Source of the DNA: Microcoleus sp. B6-A1
Lineage (GTDB): Bacteria; Cyanobacteriota; Cyanobacteriia; Cyanobacteriales; Microcoleaceae
NCBI GenBank assembly: GCA_036705085.1
Contig: JAUBTU010000002.1
Reading direction: 5' to 3' (one strand)
DNA length: 24,000 bases
Shown here: positions 2,891 through 23,502 of the stretch, in pieces
Layout: each line of letters opens with the position of its first letter
Numbering within the stretch: position 1 is the first letter of the stretch
The notes under the pieces: model-generated
Database searches by the model: none
The model's input: only the letters and a program-made list of their open reading frames with translations
Told to the model about the DNA's origin: nothing
Made by a program: the position numbers and the translations under genes

Positions 2891-3637
2891 TCACGATTCA
2901 GGCAGGTTATCGGGATCGATCCCTTGCGATCGCAAATACTCAGCTAGGCGTTCGGCTCGCTGTTGTTGAACCTCAGCTCGTTGTTGTTCTACCCTCAACT
3001 GTTCGCGCATCTGCCCCGCCGCTACATCCGGCAGGGGATAGATATTTCCCGACTCGTCGTACCAAACTAGAATTTCTTGCTCGATGCCCCCAATAACTTG
3101 CCCAGATCGCCCCATGCCCAGTCCCACTTCTGGCATCCAATAGGGTTCGCCAATCTGCTGGCGATACTGCCCGTCAATCAGCTTGTAGGCTTCAAACGGT
3201 TGATGGCGATCGCGCCGCCAAAATTCGGGGTTGTAAATAATGTAGTATAAAACCCCTAACCCGGCATAAATCGACATTTTATCGTCGTATTCCCCACCGG
3301 GTTTGTGAGACACCATTTCCAATGCTACGATCGGCACAACCTCGTTTTCTTCCCAGACAGCATAGCTGCGGCGAGATTTGCCCCCTTTTCGGCGCTCCAC
3401 CCCCAAACTGAGAAACCCGTCGGGGACGACAGGCACTTTGGGACTTATTCCTGTAGTGTGATACACCGCCATATCCACCCCAAAGTACCAATCCATGCGA
3501 GCCGACCAAATACCGGTCAGGACAAACAACAATAGGTTCGGCAGCAGATTCTGGTCTTCGTTATCCACAGGGGTATCGTCCGAACAGGGCAGGTCTTCGG
3601 TGGACGGCAAGCTGAATTTTAGTTCTGGGGAAATCAT
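2891..3637 (-). CDS. Uma2-family (DUF820) putative endonuclease
   Basis: 248-aa ORF with the characteristic cyanobacterial Uma2 layout: 'PDGFLSLGV', 'VALEMVSH', 'KMSIYAGLGVLYYIIYNPE', and a Q/R/E-rich C-terminal coiled-coil tail ending '...YLRSQGIDPDNL'. Confidence 0.8.
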   Translation of the reverse strand: MISPELKFSLPSTEDLPCSDDTPVDNEDQNLLPNLLLFVLTGIWSARMDWYFGVDMAVYHTTGISPKVPVVPDGFLSLGVERRKGGKSRRSYAVWEENEVVPIVALEMVSHKPGGEYDDKMSIYAGLGVLYYIIYNPEFWRRDRHQPFEAYKLIDGQYRQQIGEPYWMPEVGLGMGRSGQVIGGIEQEILVWYDESGNIYPLPDVAAGQMREQLRVEQQRAEVQQQRAERLAEYLRSQGIDPDNLPES

Positions 3638-3766
3638 GGCAGTTAACTTCCATCGAGCTCGTTAACCTGATTTTAGATTCTAGCAACTTTTTGGGAATTT
3701 TGATTTTTTAAGGCGGTAAAGTTTTGAACTCAACGGCTTTGCAGTATATCTAAGCAGGAAGGCACA

Positions 3767-3794
3767 ACACGGATTTGGACACGGATACACGGAT
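3767..3794. repeat. Short repeat ACACGGAT x3 (one spaced copy, two tandem)
   Basis: acacggat occurs at 3767-3774, 3779-3786 and 3787-3794, in the prfB/Uma2 divergent intergenic region. Confidence 0.8.
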
Positions 3795-3860
3795 TAATTG
3801 CTGAAATGTCGAAATTTCAGCTAAAATCGACAAGACACCCCACAACTAGGAGAACTAACA

Positions 3861-4977
3861 GTGGAAGTTCTAGACATCAAACACAACATCGAAACATTGT
3901 GCGATCGACTGGGTACAACCCAGGACTATCTTTGACATCCCCGCACTTACAGCCAAAATTCAAGACTTAGAGCAAATCTGCGCCCAACCAGCATTTTGGG
4001 ACGACCAAGATAGAGCTCAAGAAACCCTCCAAGAACTTAATGACTTCAAATCTCATTTAGACCAATATCGCGGCTGGCAAACTAGCTTGGCAGATGCTAA
4101 AGCTATTTTAGAACTGCTGGAGTTAGAAGCCGACGAGTCCCTGTTCCAAGAAGCCTCATCAAGTCTTTCTCGGTTAACCCGCGAACTCGACCAGTGGGAA
4201 CTGCAACAATTACTATCCGGGCCCTACGACGAAGGCGGCGCCGTTTTGACGATTAACGCCGGGGCCGGCGGCACAGATGCTCAAGATTGGGCCGAAATGC
4301 TGCTGCGGATGTACACCCGCTGGGGGGAAAGTCAAGGTTACAAAGTACATTTAATGGAAATTTCCGAGGGAGAGGAAGCAGGTGTTAAATCTGCTTCTTT
4401 GGAAATTGTCGGCCGCTACGCTTACGGTTATATGCGATCGGAAAAAGGCACTCACCGCTTGGTCAGAATTTCGCCTTTTAATGCTAATGACAAGCGTCAA
4501 ACCAGTTTTGCAGGCGTTGAAGTGATGCCAATTCTCGATCGATCCGTCAAGTTGGACATTCCCGAAAAGGATTTGGAAATCACGACTTCCCGCGCGGGCG
4601 GCAAGGGCGGGCAAAATGTTAACAAGGTGGAAACCGCAGTCCGCATCGTGCACCTTCCTACCGGTTTGGCTGTCCGCTGCACCGAAGAACGCAGTCAGTT
4701 GCAAAATAAGGAAAAAGCTTTGGCATTACTCAAGGCTAGGCTGTTGGTAGTTGCTAAGGAACAGCGGGCTTCGGAAATTGCCGAGATTCGCGGCGATATG
4801 GTGGAGGCGGCTTGGGGCAACCAAATTCGCAATTATGTTTTTCACCCATACCAAATGGTCAAGGATTTGCGTACTGGAGTGGAAACAACCGCCATCGCAG
4901 ATGTGATGAACGGCGAATTAGACCCGTTTATTCAAGCTTACCTGCGGCAGGAAAATCAGTTGGTCAGTAGTCAGTAG
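3861..4977 (+). CDS. prfB: Peptide chain release factor 2, with programmed +1 ribosomal frameshift (frame 0: 3861..3932; frame +1: 3934..4977)
   Basis: GTG at 3861 is preceded by AGGAG (3848-3852). Frame 0 reads ...Q D Y L then TGA at 3933-3935 within 'tat ctt tga c'. The +1 frame from 3934 is continuous with track ORF 4087..4977. That ORF carries the RF2 'SPF' motif ('RISPFNA') and the GGQ motif ('[16 protein letters not shown]'). Confidence 0.93.
3927..3936 (+). promoter_or_regulatory. prfB: prfB autoregulatory +1 frameshift site (TAT CTT TGA C)
   Basis: The slippery CTT-T followed by an in-frame TGA-C matches the canonical RF2 recoding site. A weak SD-like AGGA sits a few nt upstream (3922-3925). 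Confidence 0.9.
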
Positions 4978-7664: not shown

Positions 7665-7701
7665 GGTGGTAAAGAAACAATTTGCGATCGCACTTTTCCA
7701 C

Positions 7702-8154
7702 TCAAACACTAACAGTTTCCCGCAACTTCTCAACTGCAACATCCAGCGGAGGCAAAGCAAAATCCTCAGCATCCATCAATTCCTTAACCTTCTCAAAAAT
7801 CTCAACCTCCGCCTCTTCTTGGTCTGTCAGCTTATCATAAAAATAAGGGTCAGTAAACCACTGTTCAAACGCTATCATTAACAAGCCATTGGGTGAAAGG
7901 TCAAACCGCCAATACTTAGAAATTCTGCTGTCAACCACTTCAAACATCGGCGCCGGATTATGGATGGGATAATAGCTATAATTATCATTGCAGATGTAGT
8001 ACCAAATAGTCCCTTTCCATTCTCGGATAGCATAAACAACATATTCCTTGCCTATAGTTAGCGGTAACTCAACCTTTCTAGTGTAACCGCGTGGCGGATC
8101 TATATATTCTTCAGGAAGAGATTCACCAGTCTTAGCAATACAACGAATTTTCAT
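7702..8154 (-). CDS. Hypothetical 150-aa protein, downstream member of duplicated cassette (copy 1); candidate immunity-like partner
   Basis: Intact ORF, paralogous to 8559..9011. It starts 11 nt after the stop of the 102-aa ORF. The C-terminal tail is acidic. No family is recognised with certainty. Confidence 0.6.
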   Translation of the reverse strand: MKIRCIAKTGESLPEEYIDPPRGYTRKVELPLTIGKEYVVYAIREWKGTIWYYICNDNYSYYPIHNPAPMFEVVDSRISKYWRFDLSPNGLLMIAFEQWFTDPYFYDKLTDQEEAEVEIFEKVKELMDAEDFALPPLDVAVEKLRETVSV

Positions 8155-8165
8155 AACTTGATTAC

Positions 8166-8474
8166 CTACAGATTTTTAGGGGCTGTTTTGGGATACTGTC
8201 GCTTGAACTTAAACTCCACATCTTGAAGAGTCTGACTGTTCCGAAACCAATGGACTTGTACGGAAGCTCCATTAATTTCAAAAGCCTCAATACTTGTCAT
8301 TTTATCCCAATCTTCAGCATTCCCGCCATAAACAGCAATAAGTCTCCGTGCATCGCCCAACAGTCTATCTGTACCGCAATGAATGACTATGCAATTACCA
8401 GCCTTAGCATCTTCCAGGAGCAATTGCTCCGGCAAATTTCTCGGACTCTCATCGGGAATAGCACCTTGATTCAT
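8166..8474 (-). CDS. Hypothetical 102-aa protein, upstream member of duplicated cassette (copy 1); candidate orphan toxin-like C-terminal module
   Basis: Intact ORF with an ATG start, paralogous to 9023..9331. The pattern 'NLPEQLLL.DAKA...LGD..R....YGG...DW.KM.......G..V.VHWFRN..T...VEFKFK' resembles C-terminal modules I recall from polymorphic toxins. This rests on memory, not a search. Confidence 0.55.
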   Translation of the reverse strand: MNQGAIPDESPRNLPEQLLLEDAKAGNCIVIHCGTDRLLGDARRLIAVYGGNAEDWDKMTSIEAFEINGASVQVHWFRNSQTLQDVEFKFKRQYPKTAPKNL

Positions 8475-8558
8475 AGTTTAACAGTTGCAGATGTTATTTG
8501 TCAAAAAGCTGTTTGAATCAACGGCAAAAGACTAAATTTACCTTCCCACTTTCTCAAC

Positions 8559-9011
8559 TCAAACACTGACACTTTCCCGCAACTTCTCAACTGCAACATC
8601 CAGCGGAGGCAAAGCAAAATCCTCAGCATCCATCAATTCCTTAACCTTCTCAAAAACCTCAACCTCTGCCTCTTCCTGATCCGTCAGCTTATCATAAAAA
8701 TAAGGGTCAGTAAACCACTGCTCAAAAGCAATCTCTAACCGCCCATTCGGTGCTAGTTCAAACCGCCAATACTTAGAAACTCTACTATCAACCACCTCAA
8801 ACAGCGGTGCAGGATTCTGCATGGGATAATAGGTGTAGTTATCGTCACAGATATAGTACCAAACATTACCCTGCGATTGGTAAAGAGCGTAGACAACATA
8901 TTCTTTGCCAAGCGTTAGCGGAAATTCCACTTCTTTCGTAAAATAGAACTCAGGCTTGAGGTAACTTTCAGGGAGAGCATTACCTGTATTGGCAATACAG
9001 CGAATTTTCAT
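8559..9011 (-). CDS. Hypothetical 150-aa protein, cassette copy 2; candidate immunity-like partner
   Basis: Paralog of 7702..8154. The last ~57 residues are nearly identical to copy 1, while the N-terminal ~90 residues are much more divergent. Confidence 0.6.
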   Translation of the reverse strand: MKIRCIANTGNALPESYLKPEFYFTKEVEFPLTLGKEYVVYALYQSQGNVWYYICDDNYTYYPMQNPAPLFEVVDSRVSKYWRFELAPNGRLEIAFEQWFTDPYFYDKLTDQEEAEVEVFEKVKELMDAEDFALPPLDVAVEKLRESVSV

Positions 9012-9022
9012 GTTTTTTATAA

Positions 9023-9331
9023 CTACAGATTTTTTAGTGTAGTTTTAGGATATGTACGTTTGAATTTAAACTCAACAGTTTGGGCAGTCTCGTTATTTCT
9101 GAACCAATGTACTTCAACAACTGCTCCCTCAATTACTGCGGTTTGGGAACTAACCATTTTAACCCAATCACCGACTTTGCCCCCGTAATTAGCGACCAAT
9201 CGGGGAGCATCTCCCAACGGCTTATCTGCACTGCCTAGAATTCGTTTGCCGACGCTAGCTTTAGCATCTTGCAACAGAAGTTGCTCCGGCAAATTTCTCG
9301 GACTCTCATCGGGAATAGCACCTTGATTCAC
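9023..9331 (-). CDS. Hypothetical 102-aa protein, cassette copy 2 (GTG start); candidate orphan toxin-like module
   Basis: Paralog of 8166..8474 with gapless alignment. The first 20 residues are identical, the centre is divergent, and the 'VHWFRN...VEFKFKR.YPKT' end is conserved. Confidence 0.55.
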   Translation of the reverse strand: MNQGAIPDESPRNLPEQLLLQDAKASVGKRILGSADKPLGDAPRLVANYGGKVGDWVKMVSSQTAVIEGAVVEVHWFRNNETAQTVEFKFKRTYPKTTLKNL

Positions 9332-9357
9332 AATTTAACAGCTTCAAATATTGTTTG

Positions 9358-10775
9358 TCAAATACCATAAAAACTAATTTTAGCAGGTTCAGTTTCCGCC
9401 AGCAACTTTCCCCGCGAAATCACATAGCGAACCGCAGCGCGCATCCTAATTGCATCATAACAATCCTCAGCGTCCAACACAATCAAATTAGCAGGTTTCC
9501 CCGCCTCTATCCCATAATTATCATCTCCCAGATTGAGAGTTTTAGCACCGTTGACAGTGACCATATCAAAACAAGCTGCAATCTCAGCCATTCCCGTCAT
9601 CTGACAAACATGAACCGCCATATGAGCGACATCCAACATATTTCCCGTACCTAAACTATACCAAGGATCTTGCACACAGTCGTGGCCAAAACTCACATTC
9701 AATCCCTGCTGCCACAACTCCTTAACTCGCGTCACCCCACGGCGTTTGGGATAAGTATCAGCGCGGCCTTGCAGGGTGATATTAATTAAAGGATTGGCGA
9801 TGAAATTAATTCGCGATTTGGCCAAACTTCCCATCAGCTTAAAAGCATAAGCATTGTTGTAAGAACCGAAAGCCGTCGTGTGGCTTGCAGTCACCCGCGA
9901 ACCAGCCCCGCTTCTAATCGCACAAGCCGCTACAACCTCCAAAAATCTCGACTGTTCATCATCGATTTCATCGCAGTGAACATCTATTAATCTATGGTAT
10001 TTTTCAGCAAGTTCAAAAATTCGCTCAACCGACTTCACCCCATCTTCCCGCGTCAACTCATAATGCGGAATCCCGCCCACAGCATCCGCACCCATATCCA
10101 GAGATTTCTCTAAGAGTTTGTCATTTTCTGGACTTCCGTAAATCCCGTCTTGAGGAAAAGCCACAACTTGCAGAGTCATCCAATCTTTGACTTGTTCACG
10201 AACTTCCAAAAGTCCTTGCAAAGCAGTCAGCGTCGGTTCGCTAACATCAGCGTGACTCCTGACAAACAAAATCCCTTGAGACGCTTGCAGCTTTAAAGTT
10301 TCTACAGCCCGTTTTTTGACATCATCCAGAGTTAAACATTGCTTGCGTTCCCCCCAGATTTGAATACCCTCGAACAAAGTGCCGCTTTCATTCCATCGCG
10401 GTTCCCCCGCAGTCAATCGATTTTAGATTTTAGATTTTAGATTTTAGATTTTAGACTGAAGCATTGACCCCACGGATAAATTCGGGGGGCAAGTTTCATC
10501 GGATACAGGTTTTTATTTCTCCACCGATGAATCCGGGGGCTTGTATCCTGGATGCTTTCAGTCAAAGCCGAATCGAGATGAATGTGCGAATCCACAAAAG
10601 GAGGACTAACTAAATTGCCTTGAATGTCGATTTCGCGTTCGCCAAGTTCTGATACCCGATGCGAAACGGCGACTATTTGGTCATCCTCGATAGCAATATC
10701 AACCGTTGGGCGATCATCGCCCGCACCTAACAAACGACATTCGCGCAGAACAATGCTATACTTTTGCTCAGGCAT
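9358..10775 (-). pseudogene. codA: Cytosine deaminase interrupted by a 149-bp insertion (fragments 10437..10775 and 9358..10416 lie in different frames)
   Basis: The fragments align collinearly with E. coli CodA as I recall it. The N-fragment has 'PPFVDSHIHLDSALT'. The C-fragment has 'AGEPRWNESGTLFEGI...DVHCDEIDDEQSRF...VTASHTTA...GHDCVQDPWY'. The N-fragment runs into the inserted sequence and stops inside a heptamer array. Confidence 0.85.
10410..10565 (-). mobile_element. MITE-like insertion (142 bp) in codA, flanked by a 7-bp direct repeat TTGACTG; includes a (TAAAATC)x5 array
   Basis: On the plus strand, cagtcaa occurs at 10410-10416 and 10559-10565. Between them lie ttttaga x5 (10421-10455) and ~100 bp with internal imperfect repeats (gcccccggattcatcggtgg / gccccccgaatttatccgtgg on the gene strand). 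Removing 10417-10565 restores ...GCT TTG ACT GCG GGG GAA... in frame. Confidence 0.75.
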
Positions 10776-13433: not shown

Positions 13434-14798
13434 TTACCGCTTAGCCAACTTCAGCATTTGAGCCGTCACTGCCAAACTTTCTTCGTAAAGCACATCTCGG
13501 CCCCAACTCTGCAAGTGCTGGCCCAGCAACTGTTCCGTCACCTGATCGAACAGAGGACTCACCTGGTTAAACCGATCGGTTTGAGCGCCGCCCTTCGTTT
13601 CCATCCGCATACAGCCACCCGCTTCCGAACACAGCACTGTACCGCAGTCAGCCTTCTCGTTCGTAGAATTCAAACGCAGAGCAATCAAATCGCCCGCGAC
13701 ATCGCCCGAATCAGCAGTAGGAATAGCAGCCAACTCGGCTTCGACAACGCGTTCGTCCGGCCCGGCGAATTTAATTCGCTTGATGTGGTAATCGCCCTCT
13801 TCCTGTTTGAAAGCAACAGGACGCCACTGAAGCCGACTCGCCAGCCAACCCAAATACATCAGCGCTTGCGTAGAATTGTCCTGTTCGTAATCGATCGTCA
13901 CCCGATCAATTTCCCGAATCGCAGCGCGACGTTCCGGGGCGTCAAAAGCCTCAGCAGCCAACTCCTGCCACGCGGCCAGCCGGCGCCAATTGAGATCCGC
14001 GATCGGAATTCCCTCCTCGATCAGACTTTGCATCAACAGCAATTCCGCTTCACACTCGGCAAAGCTGCTAGAGTCAACAATCACAGAACTGCTAACTGCC
14101 GCCAGCCGCTGGAACAAACCTCGATCGGCATCAGGATTCGCCTTCCACCACAGCAGCGTCGGCAAATCAGCGATAGTCAACGCCGTCACGATGCCGCTCA
14201 CCCGTTCCAAAGCAGCTTCCGTACCGCGCAGCGTAATGTACTCGCAGCAGATCAGATTGCCACTGGTGCGCTTGTGAACCGGACAATAAGCAGCCACTTG
14301 AGCCTGCACGCCCGTATCTTCCCCCGCCGTCGGACACAGAGCAATAATCCGGCAGGGATTGGCAGCCACGATCGCGTCAGCCACGCCCGAACCCCCCGAA
14401 CCCAAACCACTCGATCCCATCTCCTCGCCATTGGAATTTTTGCGAGCCACTTCTTCCCGCAAAGTCGCCAGCAATTCAGCGTTAGCTTTGCCAGTTCTCG
14501 GCAGTCCGTAAGCTTTTTGAGCAGCCCTGATGCTAGATGCCGTCATCGGCCCGGTAATACCGTCCACCGGCCCGTCGTAAAACCCTAGATCCGCCAATAA
14601 CCGCTGAGTTTCTTCGGGTTCGTAGACTACAAAAGTAAAAGTTGTTGCCCTACTAGCGATCGGAAAATCGCCCTTCGACCCCGATTCTCTGTAACTTTCC
14701 CAAATTTGACTCAATTCGGCCTCTATTTGGTCGATCGACACATCTTTAGGACTTTGTAGCGAAACCAGAGGCGGAGCTTTCATCGGTGTCATCGTCAT
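13434..14798 (-). CDS. opcA: Glucose-6-phosphate dehydrogenase assembly/activator protein OpcA, carrying an internal peptidoglycan-binding-like (PG_binding_1-type) segment
   Basis: 454-aa ORF directly downstream of zwf, the conserved cyanobacterial order. The N- and C-terminal regions are OpcA-like. The internal 'LGFYDGPVDGITGPMTASSIRAAQKAYGLPRTGKANAELLATL' matches the PG-binding repeat pattern. Confidence 0.85.
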   Translation of the reverse strand: MTMTPMKAPPLVSLQSPKDVSIDQIEAELSQIWESYRESGSKGDFPIASRATTFTFVVYEPEETQRLLADLGFYDGPVDGITGPMTASSIRAAQKAYGLPRTGKANAELLATLREEVARKNSNGEEMGSSGLGSGGSGVADAIVAANPCRIIALCPTAGEDTGVQAQVAAYCPVHKRTSGNLICCEYITLRGTEAALERVSGIVTALTIADLPTLLWWKANPDADRGLFQRLAAVSSSVIVDSSSFAECEAELLLMQSLIEEGIPIADLNWRRLAAWQELAAEAFDAPERRAAIREIDRVTIDYEQDNSTQALMYLGWLASRLQWRPVAFKQEEGDYHIKRIKFAGPDERVVEAELAAIPTADSGDVAGDLIALRLNSTNEKADCGTVLCSEAGGCMRMETKGGAQTDRFNQVSPLFDQVTEQLLGQHLQSWGRDVLYEESLAVTAQMLKLAKR

Positions 14799-14955: not shown

Positions 14956-16485
14956 TTAAAGTCTGCGCCACTTGCGGCCATCTCTGTTAATTAGCAGTTC
15001 TGCTTCCGCAGGTTCCCAAGTACCCGCTTCGTATTTAGGAACCAAATCTTGGTCGTTGGACGATTCCCAAGCCATCAACGCCGGCGTTACCACCCGCCAA
15101 GCTTCTTCCACTTCATCAGAACGGGTAAACAAAGTTTGGTCGCCCAGCATACAATCAATTAACAGGCGATCGTAAGCATCCGAAGATGTCACCCCAAAGG
15201 AAGAACCGTAACTGAAATCCATATCCACCGTCCGCGTCCGCAAATCCGGCCCCGGCATTTTCGCCTCAAACCTCAGCGAAATCCCCTCGTTCGGATGCAC
15301 GCGCATAGTCAAAACGTTAGGAGTAGTTTGTTGGGCCGCGGACTGAAAGATTAGCAGCGGAACTTCGCGGAACTGAATCGCAATTTCGCTAACTTTTTTC
15401 GGCAACCGTTTGCCGGTTCGCAGGTAAAAAGGCACTCCCTGCCAGCGCCAGTTGTCAATCATAAACTTCATGGCCACAAAAGTCGGCGTTGTCGAGTTGG
15501 GAGCCACCCCCGGTTCTTCGTGATACCCCGGCACCTGTTTGCCCTTCATCCAACCTGCGGAATATTGACCGCGAATCGCTGAGAACTCTAAGTTATTCAA
15601 ATCTGCCAAGCGAGTTGCTTGCAGAACTTTCATCTTTTCGGTGCGGATGCTGTCAGCGTCGAGCGAGTTCGGCGGTTCCATCGCCGTCAGACAGAAAATC
15701 TGCATCAAGTGGTTTTGCAGCATATCCCGCAACGCCCCAGAGGATTCGTAGTAACCGGCCCGGTCTTCTACGCCTACTGTTTCTGCAACTGTAATTTGTA
15801 CGTGATCGACAAATTGCCGATTCCACAGCGGTTCAAAAATCGCGTTAGCAAACCGGAACACCATTAAATTCTGAACAGTTTCTTTACCCAAATAGTGGTC
15901 GATCCGGTAAACTTGCTGTTCTTGGCAAACCTTCTGCACGACTCGGTTAAGAGCTTTTGCTGAACTCAAGTCGCGGCCGAAGGGTTTTTCAATTACTAAG
16001 CGGTGTTTTACTGGATCGACTAGCATTTGAGCCGCGCCCAGTTGCCTAATTGCTTCTGGGAAAAAGTTCGGGGAAACCGACAGATAAAATATGTGATTGC
16101 CGCGAGTTCTCCTTTCTTCGTCGAGTTCGGCTAAGAAAGCTTTGAGTTTTTCATAGCTTTCGGGGTTGTCAATGTCGCCCGGACAGTAGTACAAACCTTT
16201 AGCGAAATCTTGCCAAAATTCTTCATTGCCAATGCCGCCGCCAAATTCTTCAATGCCTTCGCGCATTTGCTCTCGGAAGTAATCGTGACTCCAAGGGCGG
16301 CGGGCAACTCCCACCACGGTAGTTTCCGGTGGCAAGCGTCGATCGCGCTTCATCTGATAAATTGCAGGTACCAGTTTGCGCTGGGTGAGATCCCCAGAAG
16401 CTCCGAAGATGACCAGAATTTGTGGTTCCGGCACTCGTTCTTTTCGCAAACCTACCCGCAGCGGGTTTTCAAGAATTGTGACCAT
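14956..16485 (-). CDS. zwf: Glucose-6-phosphate 1-dehydrogenase
   Basis: 509 aa with '[14 protein letters not shown]' (NADP-binding site), 'RIDHYLGKE' (active-site motif) and 'EKPFGRDL'. Confidence 0.95.
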
Positions 16486-16489
16486 GTTT

Positions 16490-17890
16490 CTATTTTGCTC
16501 CTTCTAAAGCTGACAGCCGCGCTAATACGGCTTGATAATTAGCAGTTATAGCGTTCGGCAACGAAATCTTGGAGTATTTCGGAGTATTTCTTAGTATTTC
16601 GCAGTCTGAGAATGCGTATCCATAACCATCATTCCTGTAAACGAAATGTACATCTTTCATGGTTGAAAAGCTGATTCGGTTCCCGTTGATGAGAACTTCA
16701 CAACCGTTCTTGTTTGGGGTTTTCACCCGTGCGGTGTAGATTCCTGCTTTCACCTTTTTTCTATCCTTGTTGATCGAAACCTTGACAATATCGCCAGCAC
16801 TGACATGATGAAACACATCTTTCGCCCTCTTGACTGCCGGGAATCCTGATGCGTTGACGCGCCGTGCTTGACGGTTCCCATGTCCTTTACAGGTAACAAG
16901 TAAAGGTTGATGGGTTCGCAAATTGATCGACTGCCCTGATTCCCCAATACAGGCGGCATCAATGCTGTGAGCCTTTTCTAACCCCTGAGAGCATCGGTTA
17001 TATTTCGTTCTCCCACCCGTCCAGCATTTGACCGAATCACATAATCCTTTCGCCATTCGCACAATTGCGTAACGAGTCGCGTTGACTGCTGCCGCATCCT
17101 TCAAAGGTTGCTTTACTTGTTTGAGAATTCGATCTAGGGTGCTCGGCTTTTGTAATAAAAAATCTCTGATGTCTCGATCGCCTTTCGCCTGATTACAAGC
17201 ATGGCAAGCCAATGTGAGATTAGAAACCCGATCGCTTCCTCCTTTTGATTTTGGATAAATGTGTTCGATTTCTAATGGCACATTCTCAGTGCCACAGTAC
17301 GCACATTTTCTCTCCCATTTTTGCAACAGATATTCACGCACTTCATAGCCGAATAACGTCCCTTGCTGATACTCTATACCGTTGATTTCAGGATGCTGCA
17401 ACTTCTGTATATCGAAGCGAACTTGCTCAATTTCAATGCACTCCACGGGGCAATACCGAATCAACCGCTTAATCCACGTCTCAACGGTTAAGACGCGGTG
17501 CCGAATGGAAGGTGCTAACCATCCTTCGGGTTTGCGGCGATCTAACCGCTTTTTGCGATACCGCAGATTGCGAGAACGTCTTCCCCGTCTGAATCCTGCC
17601 CGTTGCTCCAGGCCTGCTTTAATCGTTTCGCCACGATGCTGCAACTCCATCCTCCACACAATATCTTGACCGCATTGCAAGGCGAATCCGGTGAATTTTG
17701 ACCCCGGATCTATCTTGATGGAATACAACTTTGTGACAGGATTTTGCACTCGCTCTGGCAAAATCAAAACGTAGGGATATTGGCGAAACACTTTCGCCTT
17801 CCCCTTTGATTGAATCTCTCTCGCACGAGCAGGATGAATCAGATCTAATGGCATTTTATCGGTATTCAAAAGAAACACATAATTTGGCAT
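16490..17890 (-). CDS. iscB: IscB (OMEGA-system RNA-guided RuvC/HNH nuclease, Cas9 ancestor); the track ORF extends to a GTG at 17905
   Basis: Domain order: an N-terminal PLMP-like segment ('[26 protein letters not shown]'); RuvC-I '[14 protein letters not shown]'; an Arg-rich bridge helix '[15 protein letters not shown]'; RuvC-II '[11 protein letters not shown]'; HNH 'CAYCG...[34 protein letters not shown]'; RuvC-III '[10 protein letters not shown]'; and a C-terminal '...NGNRISF...YRNDGYGY' TAM-interaction-like domain. The ATG at 17890 has GGAGAAGG just upstream. Confidence 0.85.
16571..16600. repeat. 10-nt tandem repeat (GGAGTATTTC x2 + TTAGTATTTC) inside the 3' tail of the iscB ORF
   Basis: Direct reading of 16571-16600. 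On the coding strand it encodes '...[11 protein letters not shown]...', downstream of the conserved IscB C-terminal '[10 protein letters not shown]'. Confidence 0.9.
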
Positions 17891-18260
17891 TTCTGCCTTC
17901 TCCACATATTGGGTTAAGTTTGCTTCGATCGGCTTGAGGGCTTGTTAATCGGTTTGGTGTTCTACCTTCAGAAACTAGGCGATGTTCCTCCCCTAACCGC
18001 TTGGGACTAGCAATCTCTATAGCTGAGAAAATCCCATTAAGGTTGTGACCTTTCAAGCGTCTCCACCTTCCTCAAGGGTGGGATCTGGCGTAGCAGGTAG
18101 ATTAACTACTGAAGATTCGGGAAGACCCCGAATTACTCTGTTTCTTTGCTACTCATTTCTGCTAGTTGCTCGGCCAGATAGCTAATCTGTGCTTCGTAGT
18201 TAGGAATGGAAACTCAGCATTTAGGAACCAAAACAATTATCCATTCCGACTCCTAAATGC
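17891..18260 (-). ncRNA. Candidate IscB omega-RNA (scaffold upstream of and abutting iscB; 5' boundary and guide not determinable here)
   Basis: IscB omega-RNAs are encoded directly 5' of iscB. This 370-nt non-coding stretch has no ORF. On the minus strand it contains several hairpins: ATTCGGGgtcttCCCGAAT (~18119-18137), CCACCcttgaggaaGGTGG (~18063-18081), and interleaved pairings at 18203-18260. The extent is a guess. Confidence 0.5.
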
Positions 18261-18288: not shown

Positions 18289-19443
18289 CTAGGCAACGGG
18301 TGAGAGCTTCTGCACTTTCTCTTGCAAGGAATCCATCAGGGATTGGAACGGGGTGACGAATTTATCAATCCCGTCCAAGAGCAAGTCTGCCATCACTTGG
18401 TCTAAGTTGATGTCGATGTCGGGATCTTTGAGACTTTCGATTAGCGTGTAAGCTTCTGCAACGTTGTTCTCAATCCGGGGTGCGACATCGCAGTGATCGA
18501 AACAAGCTTCAACAGTGTTCGGCGGCAAAGTGTTAACGGTGTCGGGGCCGATTAGTTCATCGACGTACATGACATCGCTGTAGTTGGGGTTTTTGGTGCT
18601 GGTGGAAGCCCACAGCAAGCGCTGCACTTTCGCTCCTTTGGCTGCTAAAGCTTGCCAGCGATCGCTCGCTACGATCTCTTTATACTTCTGGTAAGCTACC
18701 TTCGCATTGGCGATCGCAATTTTCCCCTTCACCGCTTCCAGTTTAGCTTTGGTGGAAATATCTGTGACATTTTTGAGTTTCTCGTCAATCTTGCCATCGA
18801 TATTGATGTCGATCCGGCTCAAGAAGAAACTGGCAACAGAAGCAATATTGCTCACATCCAAACCTTTAGCCACCCGCGCTTCCAATCCGCGAATGTAAGC
18901 CCAGAAGGTTTCGACGTAGCTGTCAACCGAGAACAGTAAAGTCACGTTAACGTTAATTCCTTCGCTGATGACTTGCTCGACTGCGGGCAAACCTTGAGCG
19001 GTTCCCGGAATCTTAATCATCACGTTTTCTTTGCCGAGGGCTTGGTAATAGCGTATGGCTTCGCTAATCGTGCTTTCTGTGTCGTTGGCGATCGTCGGTG
19101 GCACTTCAATGCTAATGTAGCCGTCCAAACCCTTCGACTCTGCGTAAACGGGGGCGAAGATGTCGCAAGCGTTGCGGATATCTTCAAATACCAGAGATTC
19201 GTAAATCTCCATTACAGATTTACCCGCCCGGATGCCCGCTTCGATATCCGCGTCGTAAATCACATTACCCGCGATCGCTTTCTCAAAAATAGCCGGATTA
19301 GATGTAATCCCGCGCAGTCCTCGACTTTCAATCATCTGTTTTAGTTCGCCGGACTCGATCAGATCGCGAGTCAAATTGTCCATCCAGATACTTTGGCCAA
19401 TTTCTTTGATTTCTAACAGGTGATTCGTTGGTGTTGCTGTCAT
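18289..19443 (-). CDS. tal: Transaldolase (long, ~380-aa cyanobacterial/plant type)
   Basis: 384 aa with 'GQSIWMDNLTRDLI', 'RGITSNPAIFEKAI', 'ISIEVPP' and 'MIKIPGT' (active-site Lys context). Confidence 0.93.
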   Translation of the reverse strand: MTATPTNHLLEIKEIGQSIWMDNLTRDLIESGELKQMIESRGLRGITSNPAIFEKAIAGNVIYDADIEAGIRAGKSVMEIYESLVFEDIRNACDIFAPVYAESKGLDGYISIEVPPTIANDTESTISEAIRYYQALGKENVMIKIPGTAQGLPAVEQVISEGINVNVTLLFSVDSYVETFWAYIRGLEARVAKGLDVSNIASVASFFLSRIDINIDGKIDEKLKNVTDISTKAKLEAVKGKIAIANAKVAYQKYKEIVASDRWQALAAKGAKVQRLLWASTSTKNPNYSDVMYVDELIGPDTVNTLPPNTVEACFDHCDVAPRIENNVAEAYTLIESLKDPDIDINLDQVMADLLLDGIDKFVTPFQSLMDSLQEKVQKLSPVA

Positions 19444-19614: not shown

Positions 19615-20748
19615 TCACTCTTGGACTGTTCTAGGATTGCGCGATCGATCTTGAATAAAAGACTCGACCATCGCTACATTTTCTTTACTGCCGATAATCA
19701 AGGGCGATCGCTCGTGCAGCTTGGTCGGCACAACGTCTAAGATGTCTTGAATGCCCGTACTGGCGCGCCCGCCGGCTTGCTCCATCAAAAACGCCAAAGG
19801 AGCAGATTCGTAGAGCAAACGCAATTTGCCCTCCGGTTGTTTGACCGTTCCGGGGTACAAAAACACGCCTCCCTGGAATAAAATCCGGTGGAAATCTCCC
19901 ACCAAAGCCCCGCCGTACCGGGCGGTGTAGCCTTCGCTGCGGTGTACGTAGCGAATGTAGTCTCTCAAAGATTCCTCCCACTGCCAGAAGTTGCCTTCAT
20001 TAACGCTGTAAATCGGGCCGCGATCGGGAACCTTAATGTTTTCGTTAGCTAGAATAAACTCGCCCAAACTGGGGTCGAGGGTAAAGGAATGAACACCCTG
20101 ACCGATCGAATAAACCAACATGGTACTGGGGCCGTAGAGTACATAGCCAGCGGCAATTTGTTTGTGTCCATGTTGCAGCAAGTCGGAAGCAGAGCCATCT
20201 GCATCGTCCCCCTCTTGCTTGCGGATGCTGAATATGGAGCCTACATTGAGATTGATGTCAAGATTGGAAGAACCGTCTATGGGGTCGTAGAGCAGACTGT
20301 AACGCCCGATCGGACAGTTTTCGGGAATGTAGTAGGGTTTTTCCATTTCCTCGGAAGCCAAGCGGCAGACAAGTCCGCTTTGCTGGAAGACCGAGATAAA
20401 CACTTCATTGGCATAGATATCCATCTTTTTGACGGATTCTCCCTGCACGTTCGTAGCCCCTGTAAACCCCAAGGCATCTGCCATTAATCCGGCTCTGCTG
20501 AGTCGCCTCGCGATCAGCTTGGCTGCGAGCCCGATGCGATTCATCAGAGCGCTGAGATCCTGAGCATCTGCTGAAAAGCTGTGAAGTTGCTGGAGTACGT
20601 GACGGGATAGAGTAGTGCAATCGCGGTCTAAGGCTTGCACCTGATCGATCGGGCCCAGTCGGGTTTCCCCTGTCGGCGCTTGTACCATGATATTGATAAC
20701 CTCCCTGTCTTGCTGCTGTGGATTTGGGTTCGATGGAGTCCTTGACAC
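19615..20748 (-). CDS. fbp: Class 1 fructose-1,6-bisphosphatase (start may be the internal ATG at 20688)
   Basis: Motifs 'DPIDGSSN', '[12 protein letters not shown]', 'YSVNEGN' and '[13 protein letters not shown]...GGVFLYPG'. It is the first gene of the conserved fbp-tal-zwf-opcA arrangement. Confidence 0.92.
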
Positions 20749-21173: not shown

Positions 21174-22968
21174 GTATCGGCTCAATAAATAGGGGGAGCA
21201 GTTATTCTAGTTGCCAAGACAAGCCCAAGGGATGAAGAGAAGATTATTCGCGAATAATAGTAGAGAGAGAGGGAATAACTCGAAGTTGAGAAATTCGGTC
21301 CCGGACATAATCGAAAAAACTGATTCCCAACTGACGAGTAGTAGCAACAAGAGACATAAAAGTATCCCAAGCCCTCGTACCCTCAATCGTTTGAGTTGCA
21401 TAGCTAATATTACGTCGCTGCACCATAGTTCTGGCAGCTAGCTCAGCCGGATTATTGTGTAAAGGTAATTCAGGATGCTCTAAAACTCTCAGCAACTCCG
21501 ATACTTTTGTCGCAGTTAATTGTTTGCGCTCATCCAACAATTCATAGCCACTCGGAGTTTCAAAAAGCAGCCGAAATTTAGCCTTTAAAGGCTGTGCAGC
21601 TTCGGGACTGGGAGCATCTTTATAAGCTAATAATTCCCGATAATAATCCCAAAAATCTTCGATAAACTGCCCTAAAATTACTTGATGGCAAGGGAATACC
21701 GGGCTTAACTTCTTGTAATGCCTTCCCTCGTGTACCCAACATAACGCTCGCTCGGCAGTGATTAACTTGAATTGCGGAGCATCATCACAACAAAGAGTTT
21801 GTACGACTGGACAATCTGTTTGCTGATGGTAGAAGGCAATAGCTGCTGCTTCCTTAATCCGGGTCAGTTGTTGAACACCCAGTTTGGGTAGATACTTATT
21901 GAGTAGGTGATTAAACTGTGACTCACTCAACACCGTTTCTTGAGGTAATAGCTTGAGAGCATTCTGCCATTTAGTCGGGATTTTGAAGTCCCCAATTAGT
22001 GAGAATGTGAGTGGATTCAACAGGAATTCTAGTTCTCGTCCTGGCTGTAATCCTTTCAGGACAGTCAATCTGTCTTTATTCGCTGTTGTAAAGTAGACTG
22101 TATATAAAGGGTTGCAGATGATATTGGTAGTATGGTTTACTCCACCTACACGCGCACCAGTTTGGTCGAAGTGTTGCCTGCAGACTACTTGCTAGTCCTG
22201 AATCATAAACTTCTTTTTTCTCGGTTTCAAAACCTGAGTGGTTTTTGATTAACAGGTTGGATAAATAACCCGCTGATATAGAAATACCTAGATCTGCTAA
22301 AAACTCCAGTAGTTTGCCTTGCGTCATATTGCCACCATAGTACAAACTAATGATTAAGGCTTTGATTCCTGGTCCAAATTCTCCTTCGTAGCCCATTGGT
22401 AATTCTGCTACATAAGTTTTTCCGACTGAGGGTGAGTAATATTTCTGTTTGCGGAATAATATGTTGTCGGTTGCCAAGCTGATATCTTGGATGATTACTT
22501 GTTCGTATCCTTTAAATTCTGCATCTGCTGGTAGTTGGTATGCAAGGATATTCTAGTATTTCTTCTCGATCTATTTTAATTGTGGCGTTCTTACTGCCTT
22601 TGCTGTGCTTTTTTGGGGTTTTTCGTTCTTTCTCGCTATGAGTGCTGGCTTTTGAATCCTTTGGACTTGGCTTTGATGTCTGGTTTTCCTTGCTCTCCCT
22701 TCAATCGGTTATTTTCATCTTTTAACCGTTGATTCTCTGACTCCAAGTCTTTGACTTTTAATTCTAATTGCTCTATTAGGTTCAGTAATATCTCTACTGT
22801 GTGACGCATGGATTCGTCTGCAATACCTTTTGGGTCGATGGTTTGCAGTATCTTGAAGGATGACTTGTCTTGTGAAATAATCTTTGGCGTCATGTGTCCT
22901 ATTTTATGACACTTTGTGTACTCTGCTTACTTTTTTTTCTCTCCTACCCCTACTTATTGAGCCGATAC
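21174..22968 (-). mobile_element. IS66-family-like insertion sequence (~1.8 kb) with 22-23-bp terminal inverted repeats; transposase frameshifted
   Basis: The left end gtatcggctcaataaataggggg (21174-21196) is the near-perfect reverse complement of the right end cccctacttattgagccgatac (22947-22968). Three collinear minus-strand ORF fragments lie between them. Confidence 0.8.
21244..22893 (-). pseudogene. IS66-like transposase split into three frames (22636..22893, 22076..22477, 21244..22068)
   Basis: The N-fragment has the leucine-zipper/coiled-coil 'LELKVKDLESENQRLKDENNRLKGEQGKP'. The C-fragment has 'CWVHEGRHYKKL' and 'LPLHNNPAELAARTMVQRRNISY...LGISFFDYVRDRIS', paralleling the IS66 TnpC motifs (CWAH.RR.F; L..DNN.AER..R). 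Confidence 0.7.
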
Positions 22969-23502
22969 AAAATTAACTTTGAGTAAAATATCTGAGTTGC
23001 TTTTAGTTTTGGAGCATCCGGAATTACCTTTACATAATAACCCGGCCCAATTAGCTGCTAGAACAATCGTGCAGCGACGAAATATTAGTTATGCAACCCA
23101 AACTTGTGAAGGAACTAAGGCGATGGATGTTTTCATGTCTCTGGTGGCGACTACCCGCAAATTAGGAATTAGCTTTTTTGAATATATGCACGACCGTATT
23201 TCTTACCTGGGAAATATTCCATCTCTAGGGACGATTATTCGTCAACAATCTTCGGTTTATTCTCTGGGTGTGTCCTGGTCTGATTGAAGAAATTCAAAAA
23301 AATATAAAGGCTCTGAATTATTGGCACTTGATTCCTGTAGTAAGTGTCGTATAAACCCACGGTTAATTGTGACTTTAGTGGCTAAAAAAGACTATGACAT
23401 TCTTGATTTTATGATTAATAATAATATGTCATATTCTACCATGCTGTGCCTAGATTGTGAACCTTATTTTTTTACTGTTACCCCGATTTATTGAGCGGAT
23501 AC
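22969..23502 (+). mobile_element. 5'-truncated second copy of a related IS66-like element (transposase C-terminal fragment 22979..23287 plus its terminal IR)
   Basis: The 102-aa ORF 'SKISELLLVLEHPELPLHNNPAQLAARTIVQRRNISYATQT...' is paralogous to the C-terminus of the 274-aa fragment. Homology begins at the boundary of the neighbouring IS. The end-repeat ccccgatttattgagcggatac lies at 23481-23502. Confidence 0.7.

Follow-up and report, generated by a model that had tools for sequence, protein, structure and literature searches.

The fbp-tal-zwf-opcA operon of Microcoleus sp. B6-A1, which holds genes of the oxidative pentose phosphate (OPP) pathway, carries an open reading frame (ORF) for a putative RNA-guided nuclease between tal and zwf, and this raises the question of whether the ORF is a guest in the operon or has become a part of it. 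An earlier note, made from the sequence alone, had offered two answers: a recent selfish insertion, or a domesticated nuclease or RNA wired to OPP expression. The stretch analysed here (24,000 nucleotides of contig JAUBTU010000002.1, assembly GCA_036705085.1; hereafter the window) contains fbp (19615–20748), tal (transaldolase, the co-oriented gene upstream of the ORF; 18289–19443), the ORF itself (16490–17905 with a GTG start, 471 aa, or 16490–17890 with an ATG start, 466 aa), zwf (glucose-6-phosphate dehydrogenase; 14956–16485, starting 4 nt past the ORF stop) and opcA (13434–14798), all on the minus strand. The tal-zwf region is very probably occupied by a non-autonomous IS200/IS605-type (ISC) element made up of an omega-RNA and iscB, which would be selfish, homing-type, single-copy and transcribed by read-through. 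A selfish, site-specific (homing-like) element fits the data better than a domesticated one, because the guide is a piece of flank found again in the unoccupied allele, no nuclease residue has been lost and the presence of the element is discordant with the host phylogeny; nothing was found that points to wiring to OPP expression.

This is a known kind of element, and it is already annotated in the source genome, where the protein carries the NCBI name RNA-guided endonuclease IscB (WP_333199366.1). Added here are the precise ends of the element, the host gene that it disrupted, a read-through fusion, an omega-RNA variant missed by Rfam and evidence for spread between species at the same site. 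Nothing specific on IscB in Microcoleus or in a zwf operon was found in the literature.

The ORF is, as far as can be told from its sequence, an intact IscB nuclease gene, predicted to encode cleavage that depends on a guide and on a target-adjacent motif (TAM). It scored 416 bits against the NCBIfam equivalog NF040563 'RNA-guided endonuclease IscB' (cutoff 175) and matched the Pfam families RRXRR (E 5.8e-61, 206 bits) and HNH, and its sequence matches in the PDB were TbaIscB, HfmIscB and OgeuIscB. The profile search thus placed the protein in IscB and in no other HNH family, in agreement with the identification made previously. The motifs named at that time as catalytic-looking (IDPGS, IEIEQ, EIEH...N...CxxC and HSIDAAC) are present and were invariant in the family alignment, and the residues aligned with the RuvC and HNH motifs GIDPG, LEL, YHHV and DHYLDA of OgeuIscB. 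The catalytic and zinc residues are D61, E155, H210, H308, D311 and C196/C199/C229/C232 in the numbering of the 466-aa form, which is the appropriate one since the ATG at 17890 lined up with the start of all relatives. The regions follow each other in the order N-terminal RRXRR/PLMP-RuvC, bridge helix, HNH, RuvC-III and C-terminal TAM-interaction region. By profile, PDB and family-alignment evidence the iscB coding sequence proper comprises 427 codons (16610–17890, minus strand), and its ratio of non-synonymous to synonymous divergence (dN/dS) against orthologues was 0.25–0.32.

Upstream of the GTG start, a non-coding leader of 383 nt (18288–17906) extends back to tal. The omega-RNA of IscB elements is encoded upstream of iscB and bounded by the transposon end (Meers et al. 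preprint; PMC13565253). Sequences upstream of iscB at nine paralogous loci (protein identity 64–78% and lower), drawn from Microcoleus, Potamolinea, Brasilonema and metagenomes, were aligned. Conservation among the paralogs was found to begin abruptly at GA/GTAGC (window 18154/18152; the slash marks the junction) and to end at ...CGAAGCAAACTTAAC (17913), 22 nt before the ATG. These boundaries define a scaffold of 242 nt (17913–18154, minus strand) that starts GA/GUAGCA and ends ...CGAAGCAAACUUAAC; the average reported for IscB omega-RNAs is 242 bp (Meers et al. preprint). The earlier note had taken the leader, given as 370 nt, for a structured omega-RNA. A conserved upstream RNA is indeed present, but it accounts for only about 242–258 nt of the leader, the rest being derived from the host. 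Between the scaffold and the ATG lies a linker (17891–17912, minus strand) with the iscB ribosome-binding site (GGAG), in which GCAGAAATGC was invariant among paralogs.

The structure of the scaffold is supported by covariation. In a MAFFT alignment with an RNAalifold consensus, 28 pairs were predicted that were 92% paired, with changes on both sides in 13 of them; none of 500 shuffles reached this level, and slid controls were 27–48% paired. A structural alignment made by hand, which is biased towards structure, extended the model to 36 pairs (305 of 324 cells canonical, 21 pairs compensatory) and added P1, a pseudoknot, P2 and a long-range P3. A 17-nt mini-hairpin, UUUCUCAGCUAUAGAGA (18014–18030, minus strand), is inserted in a conserved loop of the omega-RNA and is confined to the tal-zwf lineage of the element. 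A covariance model built from the window's omega-RNA clade (R1) matched more than 50 regions directly upstream of distant iscB genes, 10 of which pass the gathering score of the Rfam HEARO model (RF02033). For these the E values of R1 ranged from 2e-13 to 1e-3, and the coordinates coincided with the Rfam HEARO matches (contigs L029, L024, L028, L033, L007, L008, L035, L030, L044 and L038; contigs of relatives are given by L numbers throughout). The 3′ motif AAGCNAACNUNAC is common to the window RNA and accepted HEARO RNAs. Since R1 recovers Rfam-positive HEAROs, the RNA upstream of iscB is, on the grounds of sequence homology, a divergent HEARO/omega-RNA. A MAFFT alignment of Rfam-positive HEAROs was too ragged in its 5′ half to yield a model.

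Comparison with related genomes revealed three states of the tal-zwf region. M. vaginatus (L019–L022) has a spacer of 261 nt without IscB; other close relatives (L011–L018, L134) have an intact 281- or 268-aa coiled-coil gene, whose stop lies 0–3 nt before zwf; and the window and its orthologues have the IscB element. The flanks of the element in the window are homologous to the C-terminus of the 268-aa gene. In L134 this gene ends ...QQLAEM/TANYHDVLARLTALEKGK and a stop, and in the window ...EQLAEM is followed by the element and then by 18 host residues. The element was thus inserted between tal and zwf in the orientation of the operon, at a point 18 codons short of the stop codon of a host gene (268 aa). 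Empty sites in related genomes, whose alignment the earlier note had proposed, are therefore available in L019–L022 and L134, and they set the span of the element to about 18154–16548, with an ambiguity of 2 nt because GA stands at both junctions. The target was a gene present in Microcoleus, and not a plain spacer as had been assumed. The element also does not fill the whole spacer as was thought, although its co-orientation with the operon was read correctly: native spacer downstream of tal (18288 to about 18205, minus strand; host sequence) and remnants of the host gene persist. The 5′ remnant, EAQISYLAEQLAEM, covers about 14 codons (18153–18195, minus strand) and was recognised by homology to unoccupied alleles. 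The 3′ remnant comprises the last 18 codons and the stop (16490–16547, minus strand), fused in frame to IscB, and was recognised by homology to the C-termini of the L134 268-aa and L011 281-aa ORFs and to the M. vaginatus spacer. A left end at about 18195, suggested by a comparison with L003, proved wrong, as 18195–18153 is host sequence that is also found in empty sites. Likewise, the idea that the 281-aa ORF of relatives is a truncated IscB was rejected, since the similarity is confined to the last ~20 residues, which are host-derived.

The disrupted gene is a fifth OPP operon gene in many Microcoleus genomes (L134:2694–3500; L011:3152–3997). The N-terminal domain of its product is conserved and the tail is a coiled coil; the 268-aa protein had no match in Pfam, NCBIfam or PHROGs. 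Most of the gene has been lost from M. vaginatus, and in the window the IscB insertion destroyed it. A short palindromic repeat (GAGACCAATGGGTCTC-like) is scattered in the tal-zwf spacers of relatives and inside the 281-aa ORF (L003:2380–2700; L011:2700–3150; L019:3830–3900) and is absent from the spacer in the window.

The host flank next to the scaffold would serve as the guide. The guide segment, AGCAACTAGCAGAAAT (18155–18170, minus strand, boundary ±2 nt), is part of the 268-aa gene remnant and abuts the 5′ onset of paralog conservation. Positions 18170–18153, i.e., 16–18 nt 5′ of the scaffold, were identical at 18 of 18 positions to the unoccupied alleles L019 and L134 (AGCAACTAGCAGAAATGA); the diverged 281-aa allele of L011 did not match. 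No second match to the guide was found within the window, and the guide drifts with the flank, as shown by A/G differences in L001 and L103.

The distal transposon end (LE in the terms of Meers et al.) lies at 16548–16609 (minus strand) and contains three GAAATACTNN repeats at 16600–16571. In nine loci this end has a conserved TACTCCRA motif (the TACTCCAA-N24 form), followed by 24 nt ending in RGAC and, in the paralogs, then by A. Two to four tandem repeats of ~10 nt, (A/T)TACTCC, were seen in the window (16571–16600), L103, L113, L118 and L023; they are inverted relative to a GGAGTAA motif of the omega-RNA 5′ domain. The junctions of the paralogs read ..RGAC/A at the distal end and GA/GUAGC at the RNA end, and that of the window reads AAC/T. 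The TAM is expected at 16543–16547 (minus strand), a position that reads AACTG in the window, GACCG in empty sites and GACAG or GACAT beside paralogs. By the IS605 logic of the Meers et al. preprint, the distal end shared by the paralogs suggests a TAM near GACA(G/T).

The distal end also explains the unusual length of the ORF. IscB proteins of relatives comprise 426–433 aa and end in ...DGYGY(G/A)F. At the position of their stop the window iscB has TCA (16609–16607), so that 39 extra residues are translated. This tail is not IscB: it consists of the transposon end (16609–16548) and then of the last 18 codons of the host gene in frame. From the old stop of the host gene to the zwf ATG there are 4 nt, and the Shine-Dalgarno sequence of zwf (GGAG, 16501–16498) falls within the tail of that gene. 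The IscB ORF hence abuts zwf because the lost stop allows read-through into the tail and stop of the host gene. The M. anatoxicus orthologues (L003, L103) have 4 inserted nucleotides that throw the ORF out of frame, so that it stops 52 nt sooner; this shows that the tight junction with zwf is not conserved. The fusion of IscB to the host tail and the stop 4 nt before the zwf ATG are thus probably accidental.

The distribution of the element is not that of an insertion sequence with many copies. The 90% protein cluster includes B5-D4, herbarium8, M. anatoxicus and other Microcoleus metagenome-assembled genomes, and in every contig of this cluster that was examined the gene was located between tal and zwf. 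The complete genome CP181291.1 contains one IscB match. Multiple dispersed copies of the tal-zwf IscB were thus found neither among these contigs nor in CP181291.1, and the paralogs at 64–78% identity are each fixed at their own locus. The presence or absence of the element does not follow the host phylogeny.

The age of the element differs from that of its surroundings. Between the window and the M. anatoxicus group (L003, L103–L105), the synonymous divergence (dS) of host tal and zwf was 0.5–0.8, compared with about 0.1 between the window and relatives without IscB. Between the window and L103, iscB showed a dS of only 0.12 (dN/dS 0.25–0.32), and in the omega-RNA 1 of 241 nt was changed, whereas the iscB synonymous rate would predict ~29 changes. 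Of the 60 nt that separate the element from zwf, 59 matched L103 and 38 matched M. vaginatus. The window is vaginatus-like upstream of the tal stop and beyond about nt 60 of zwf, and the tract shared with L103 extends from about the tal stop to about nt 60 of zwf, so that introgression takes in the first ~60 nt of zwf. In the metagenomic contig L001 the element is 99.2% identical to that of the window, with 14 differences over the 1742 nt inside 18217–16476, and the flanks differ at 10 of 66 nt on the left (15%) and 17 of 212 nt on the right (8%). As judged from these divergences, the history of the element was shown to be much younger than that of the surrounding host genes. The discordance in dS and the breakpoints that hug the element indicate that the element allele moved among at least three host lineages, at the same site and with short co-converted flanks. 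Occupied and empty alleles at one site, an intact target in the latter and an element tree discordant with that of the host are all features of homing-type elements, and this locus displays each of them.

How such an element may persist can be outlined as follows. The omega-RNA and iscB would be transcribed by read-through from the fbp and tal promoters, with tal as the probable source of transcription into the element. This is proposed because no minus-strand promoter-like or terminator-like site was found between tal and zwf, and because IscB elements are known to show an orientation bias towards the upstream gene (Meers et al. preprint). The bias is general, and the co-orientation seen here is not a peculiarity of the tal-zwf locus. 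IscB would bind the scaffold, and the 16-nt guide would direct cutting of element-free alleles at AGCAACTAGCAGAAAT next to a GAC-type TAM; repair off the element-bearing copy would then restore or spread the element, and transcription would run on into zwf-opcA. The formation of a ribonucleoprotein, cleavage and copying-in are proposed because this model has been described for IscB and TnpB, where donor joints are cut by IscB and the OMEGA system is seen as a composite homing endonuclease (Meers et al. preprint; PMC13565253). No Y1 transposase (TnpA) ORF was found within the 24-kb window, which makes the element non-autonomous at best, as had been concluded before; tnpA is located nearby for only ~1.5% of iscB genes (Meers et al. 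preprint; PMC13565253). Without TnpA, the element would persist as a single-copy selfish element of the homing type. That it acts as a free-standing RNA-guided homing element, which moved between Microcoleus species into the 3′ end of the 268-aa gene by cutting and copying and is sustained by operon read-through, is put forward only tentatively.

Several observations weigh against this account. On the RNA side, RF02033 (gathering score 83 bits) had no match in the window, nor at E≤10 on a slice of 2.2 kb or of 311 nt, and a single-sequence fold of the leader was no more stable than shuffles (z = -0.64), which is uninformative. The Rfam result was dropped as evidence against an omega-RNA, as the paralog alignments and R1 showed homology to HEARO; RF02033 also misses the nearest clade of the window, yet matches 11 more distant relatives at the gathering score. 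The covariance-model scan proposed in the earlier note therefore failed with the published model, while R1 and the covariation across nine loci support the RNA. At the distal end, folding of seven loci revealed no consistent subterminal hairpin. The AACTG of the window and the GACCG of empty sites deviate from the GACAG/GACAT of the paralogs, which makes cleavage competence on the empty allele uncertain. Between the window and L001, iscB shows 9 non-synonymous and 2 synonymous changes, and this ratio, from the youngest comparison, is a warning that iscB may be under little constraint over short periods. Finally, ordinary homologous recombination between Microcoleus lineages could give the same discordance without any action of the nuclease.

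This last point leads to the rival explanation that survives best, although it is rather unlikely: a stranded, inactive IscB insertion that spreads only as a passenger, by ordinary homologous recombination of the tal-zwf allele, which is frequent in Microcoleus. The lack of tnpA, the single copy and the constant locus are as expected for such a passenger, and so are the departure of the TAM position from the paralogs and the excess of non-synonymous changes relative to L001; the crossovers moreover fall at the ends of the tal and zwf coding sequences, which are conserved and would be the place for any recombination to resolve. An inactive passenger would not, however, be expected to keep all catalytic residues intact, to show a dN/dS of 0.25–0.32 in the deeper comparison, or to have an omega-RNA with 1 change in 241 nt against ~29 expected, which points to selection for function. 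Two independent exchanges with breakpoints within ~65–140 nt of the element ends also argue against it.

Domestication is unlikely, to the point of being hardly credible. It would make the element a regulator of zwf-opcA or of another host gene, in the manner of TldR or Cas12m, or an ORF that couples translation into zwf. A stable position in a core metabolic operon under purifying selection would be in line with this, as would an ORF that stops 4 nt short of the zwf ATG and contains the zwf Shine-Dalgarno sequence, and the location of other Microcoleus IscB paralogs just upstream of housekeeping genes such as gyrA. Against these stand the intact nuclease residues and a guide that is taken from the insertion flank, changes along with it and matches nothing else in the window; the closest relatives lack the element and have normal operons, and in the M. 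anatoxicus orthologues the 4-nt insertion has broken up the fusion and the tight stop. A decaying pseudogene or relic, with an ORF open by chance and neither product made, is equally improbable. In its favour are the loss of the stop codon, an aberrant C-terminal tail that is frameshifted in orthologues and the failure to detect a promoter of its own, but all orthologues seen, from at least three host lineages, have kept the 427-codon core intact, dN/dS is far lower than 1, hardly any change is seen in the omega-RNA and the ribosome-binding site is conserved.

The preferred interpretation, a selfish element of the homing type, can be set beside known systems. With IscB-omegaRNA (OMEGA) ISC elements such as OgeuIscB and ISGst of Geobacillus stearothermophilus, the window element shares the protein architecture and catalytic residues; an omega-RNA encoded upstream of iscB in the same direction, with the transposon end as its boundary and a guide from the flank; the absence of tnpA (~98% of iscB loci); and co-orientation with the upstream host gene. 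In contrast to these elements, it is single-copy at one chromosomal site in several species, its iscB stop is lost so that the ORF runs through the transposon end into the host, its omega-RNA has a diverged 5′ domain and the 17-nt insertion and is not detected by the Rfam model, and its distal end consists of tandem TACTCC repeats with no obvious hairpin. The RNA resembles HEARO (RF02033) in the order of its helices (P1 around small hairpins, pseudoknot strand, hairpin, long-range helix, GGGAU/GUCCC hairpin and long hairpin) and in its 3′ tail, CGAAGCAAAC.U.AC, but it starts with GAGUAGC instead of GUCA, and the interior of P1 is variable. Homing elements have in common with it a presence/absence polymorphism at one precise site, a recognition sequence that is intact in empty alleles, a history discordant with the host and short co-conversion tracts; in the window, however, recognition is predicted to be RNA-guided, the element is neither an intron nor an intein, and the targeted host gene is disrupted. 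TldR and other nuclease-dead domesticated OMEGA proteins are likewise transposon-derived RNA-guided proteins fixed beside host genes, whereas the window IscB has intact catalytic residues and a guide that matches its own insertion site and not a promoter.

Other IscB paralogs in Microcoleus and relatives were each found at a single locus, typically 50–120 nt upstream of a co-oriented housekeeping gene: gyrA (at least 24 contigs), a HAD hydrolase or a peptidase M16. Examples are L118–L127 (iscB 3001–4293, gyrA from 4358), L113 (3001–4284), L128 and L130, and the pattern looks general in the clade. TnpB (OrfB_IS605) genes are located ~2.5 kb from the gyrA-associated IscB paralog in L120 and L124–L127 (positions 1–490), which indicates that other IS605-family elements are present in those Microcoleus assemblies.

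Elsewhere in the window, fragments of IS66-family transposase genes were observed upstream of fbp (21244–23287). They comprise a 274-aa ORF with a weak DDE_Tnp_IS66 match and a similar 102-aa piece on the opposite strand (22979–23287), and look like a decayed or nested insertion sequence. A pair of small genes (102 aa and 150 aa) is tandemly duplicated at about 7700–9400, with ORFs at 7702–8154 and 8559–9011 that each have a 102-aa partner; the 150-aa ORF at 7702–8154, the sole ORF scanned from these pairs, had no Pfam match.

Cas9 descends from IscB, a transposon protein that also offers a compact scaffold for genome editing and whose proposed natural role is to bias the inheritance of its own transposon. 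The tal-zwf locus is a clean natural test case for this role: cultured Microcoleus strains with sequenced genomes include both occupied and empty alleles, the guide matches the empty allele exactly and there are signatures of spread across lineages. It also illustrates that an essential metabolic operon can house IscB elements, which would draw on its transcription, and that they can erase a host gene, and it reveals an entire cyanobacterial clade of omega-RNAs that escapes the Rfam HEARO model. These results leave the accepted view of OMEGA systems as it was; what is gained is a tractable example and a better RNA alignment. If the proposed homing is true, the locus would provide population-genomic evidence for an OMEGA gene drive outside the laboratory.

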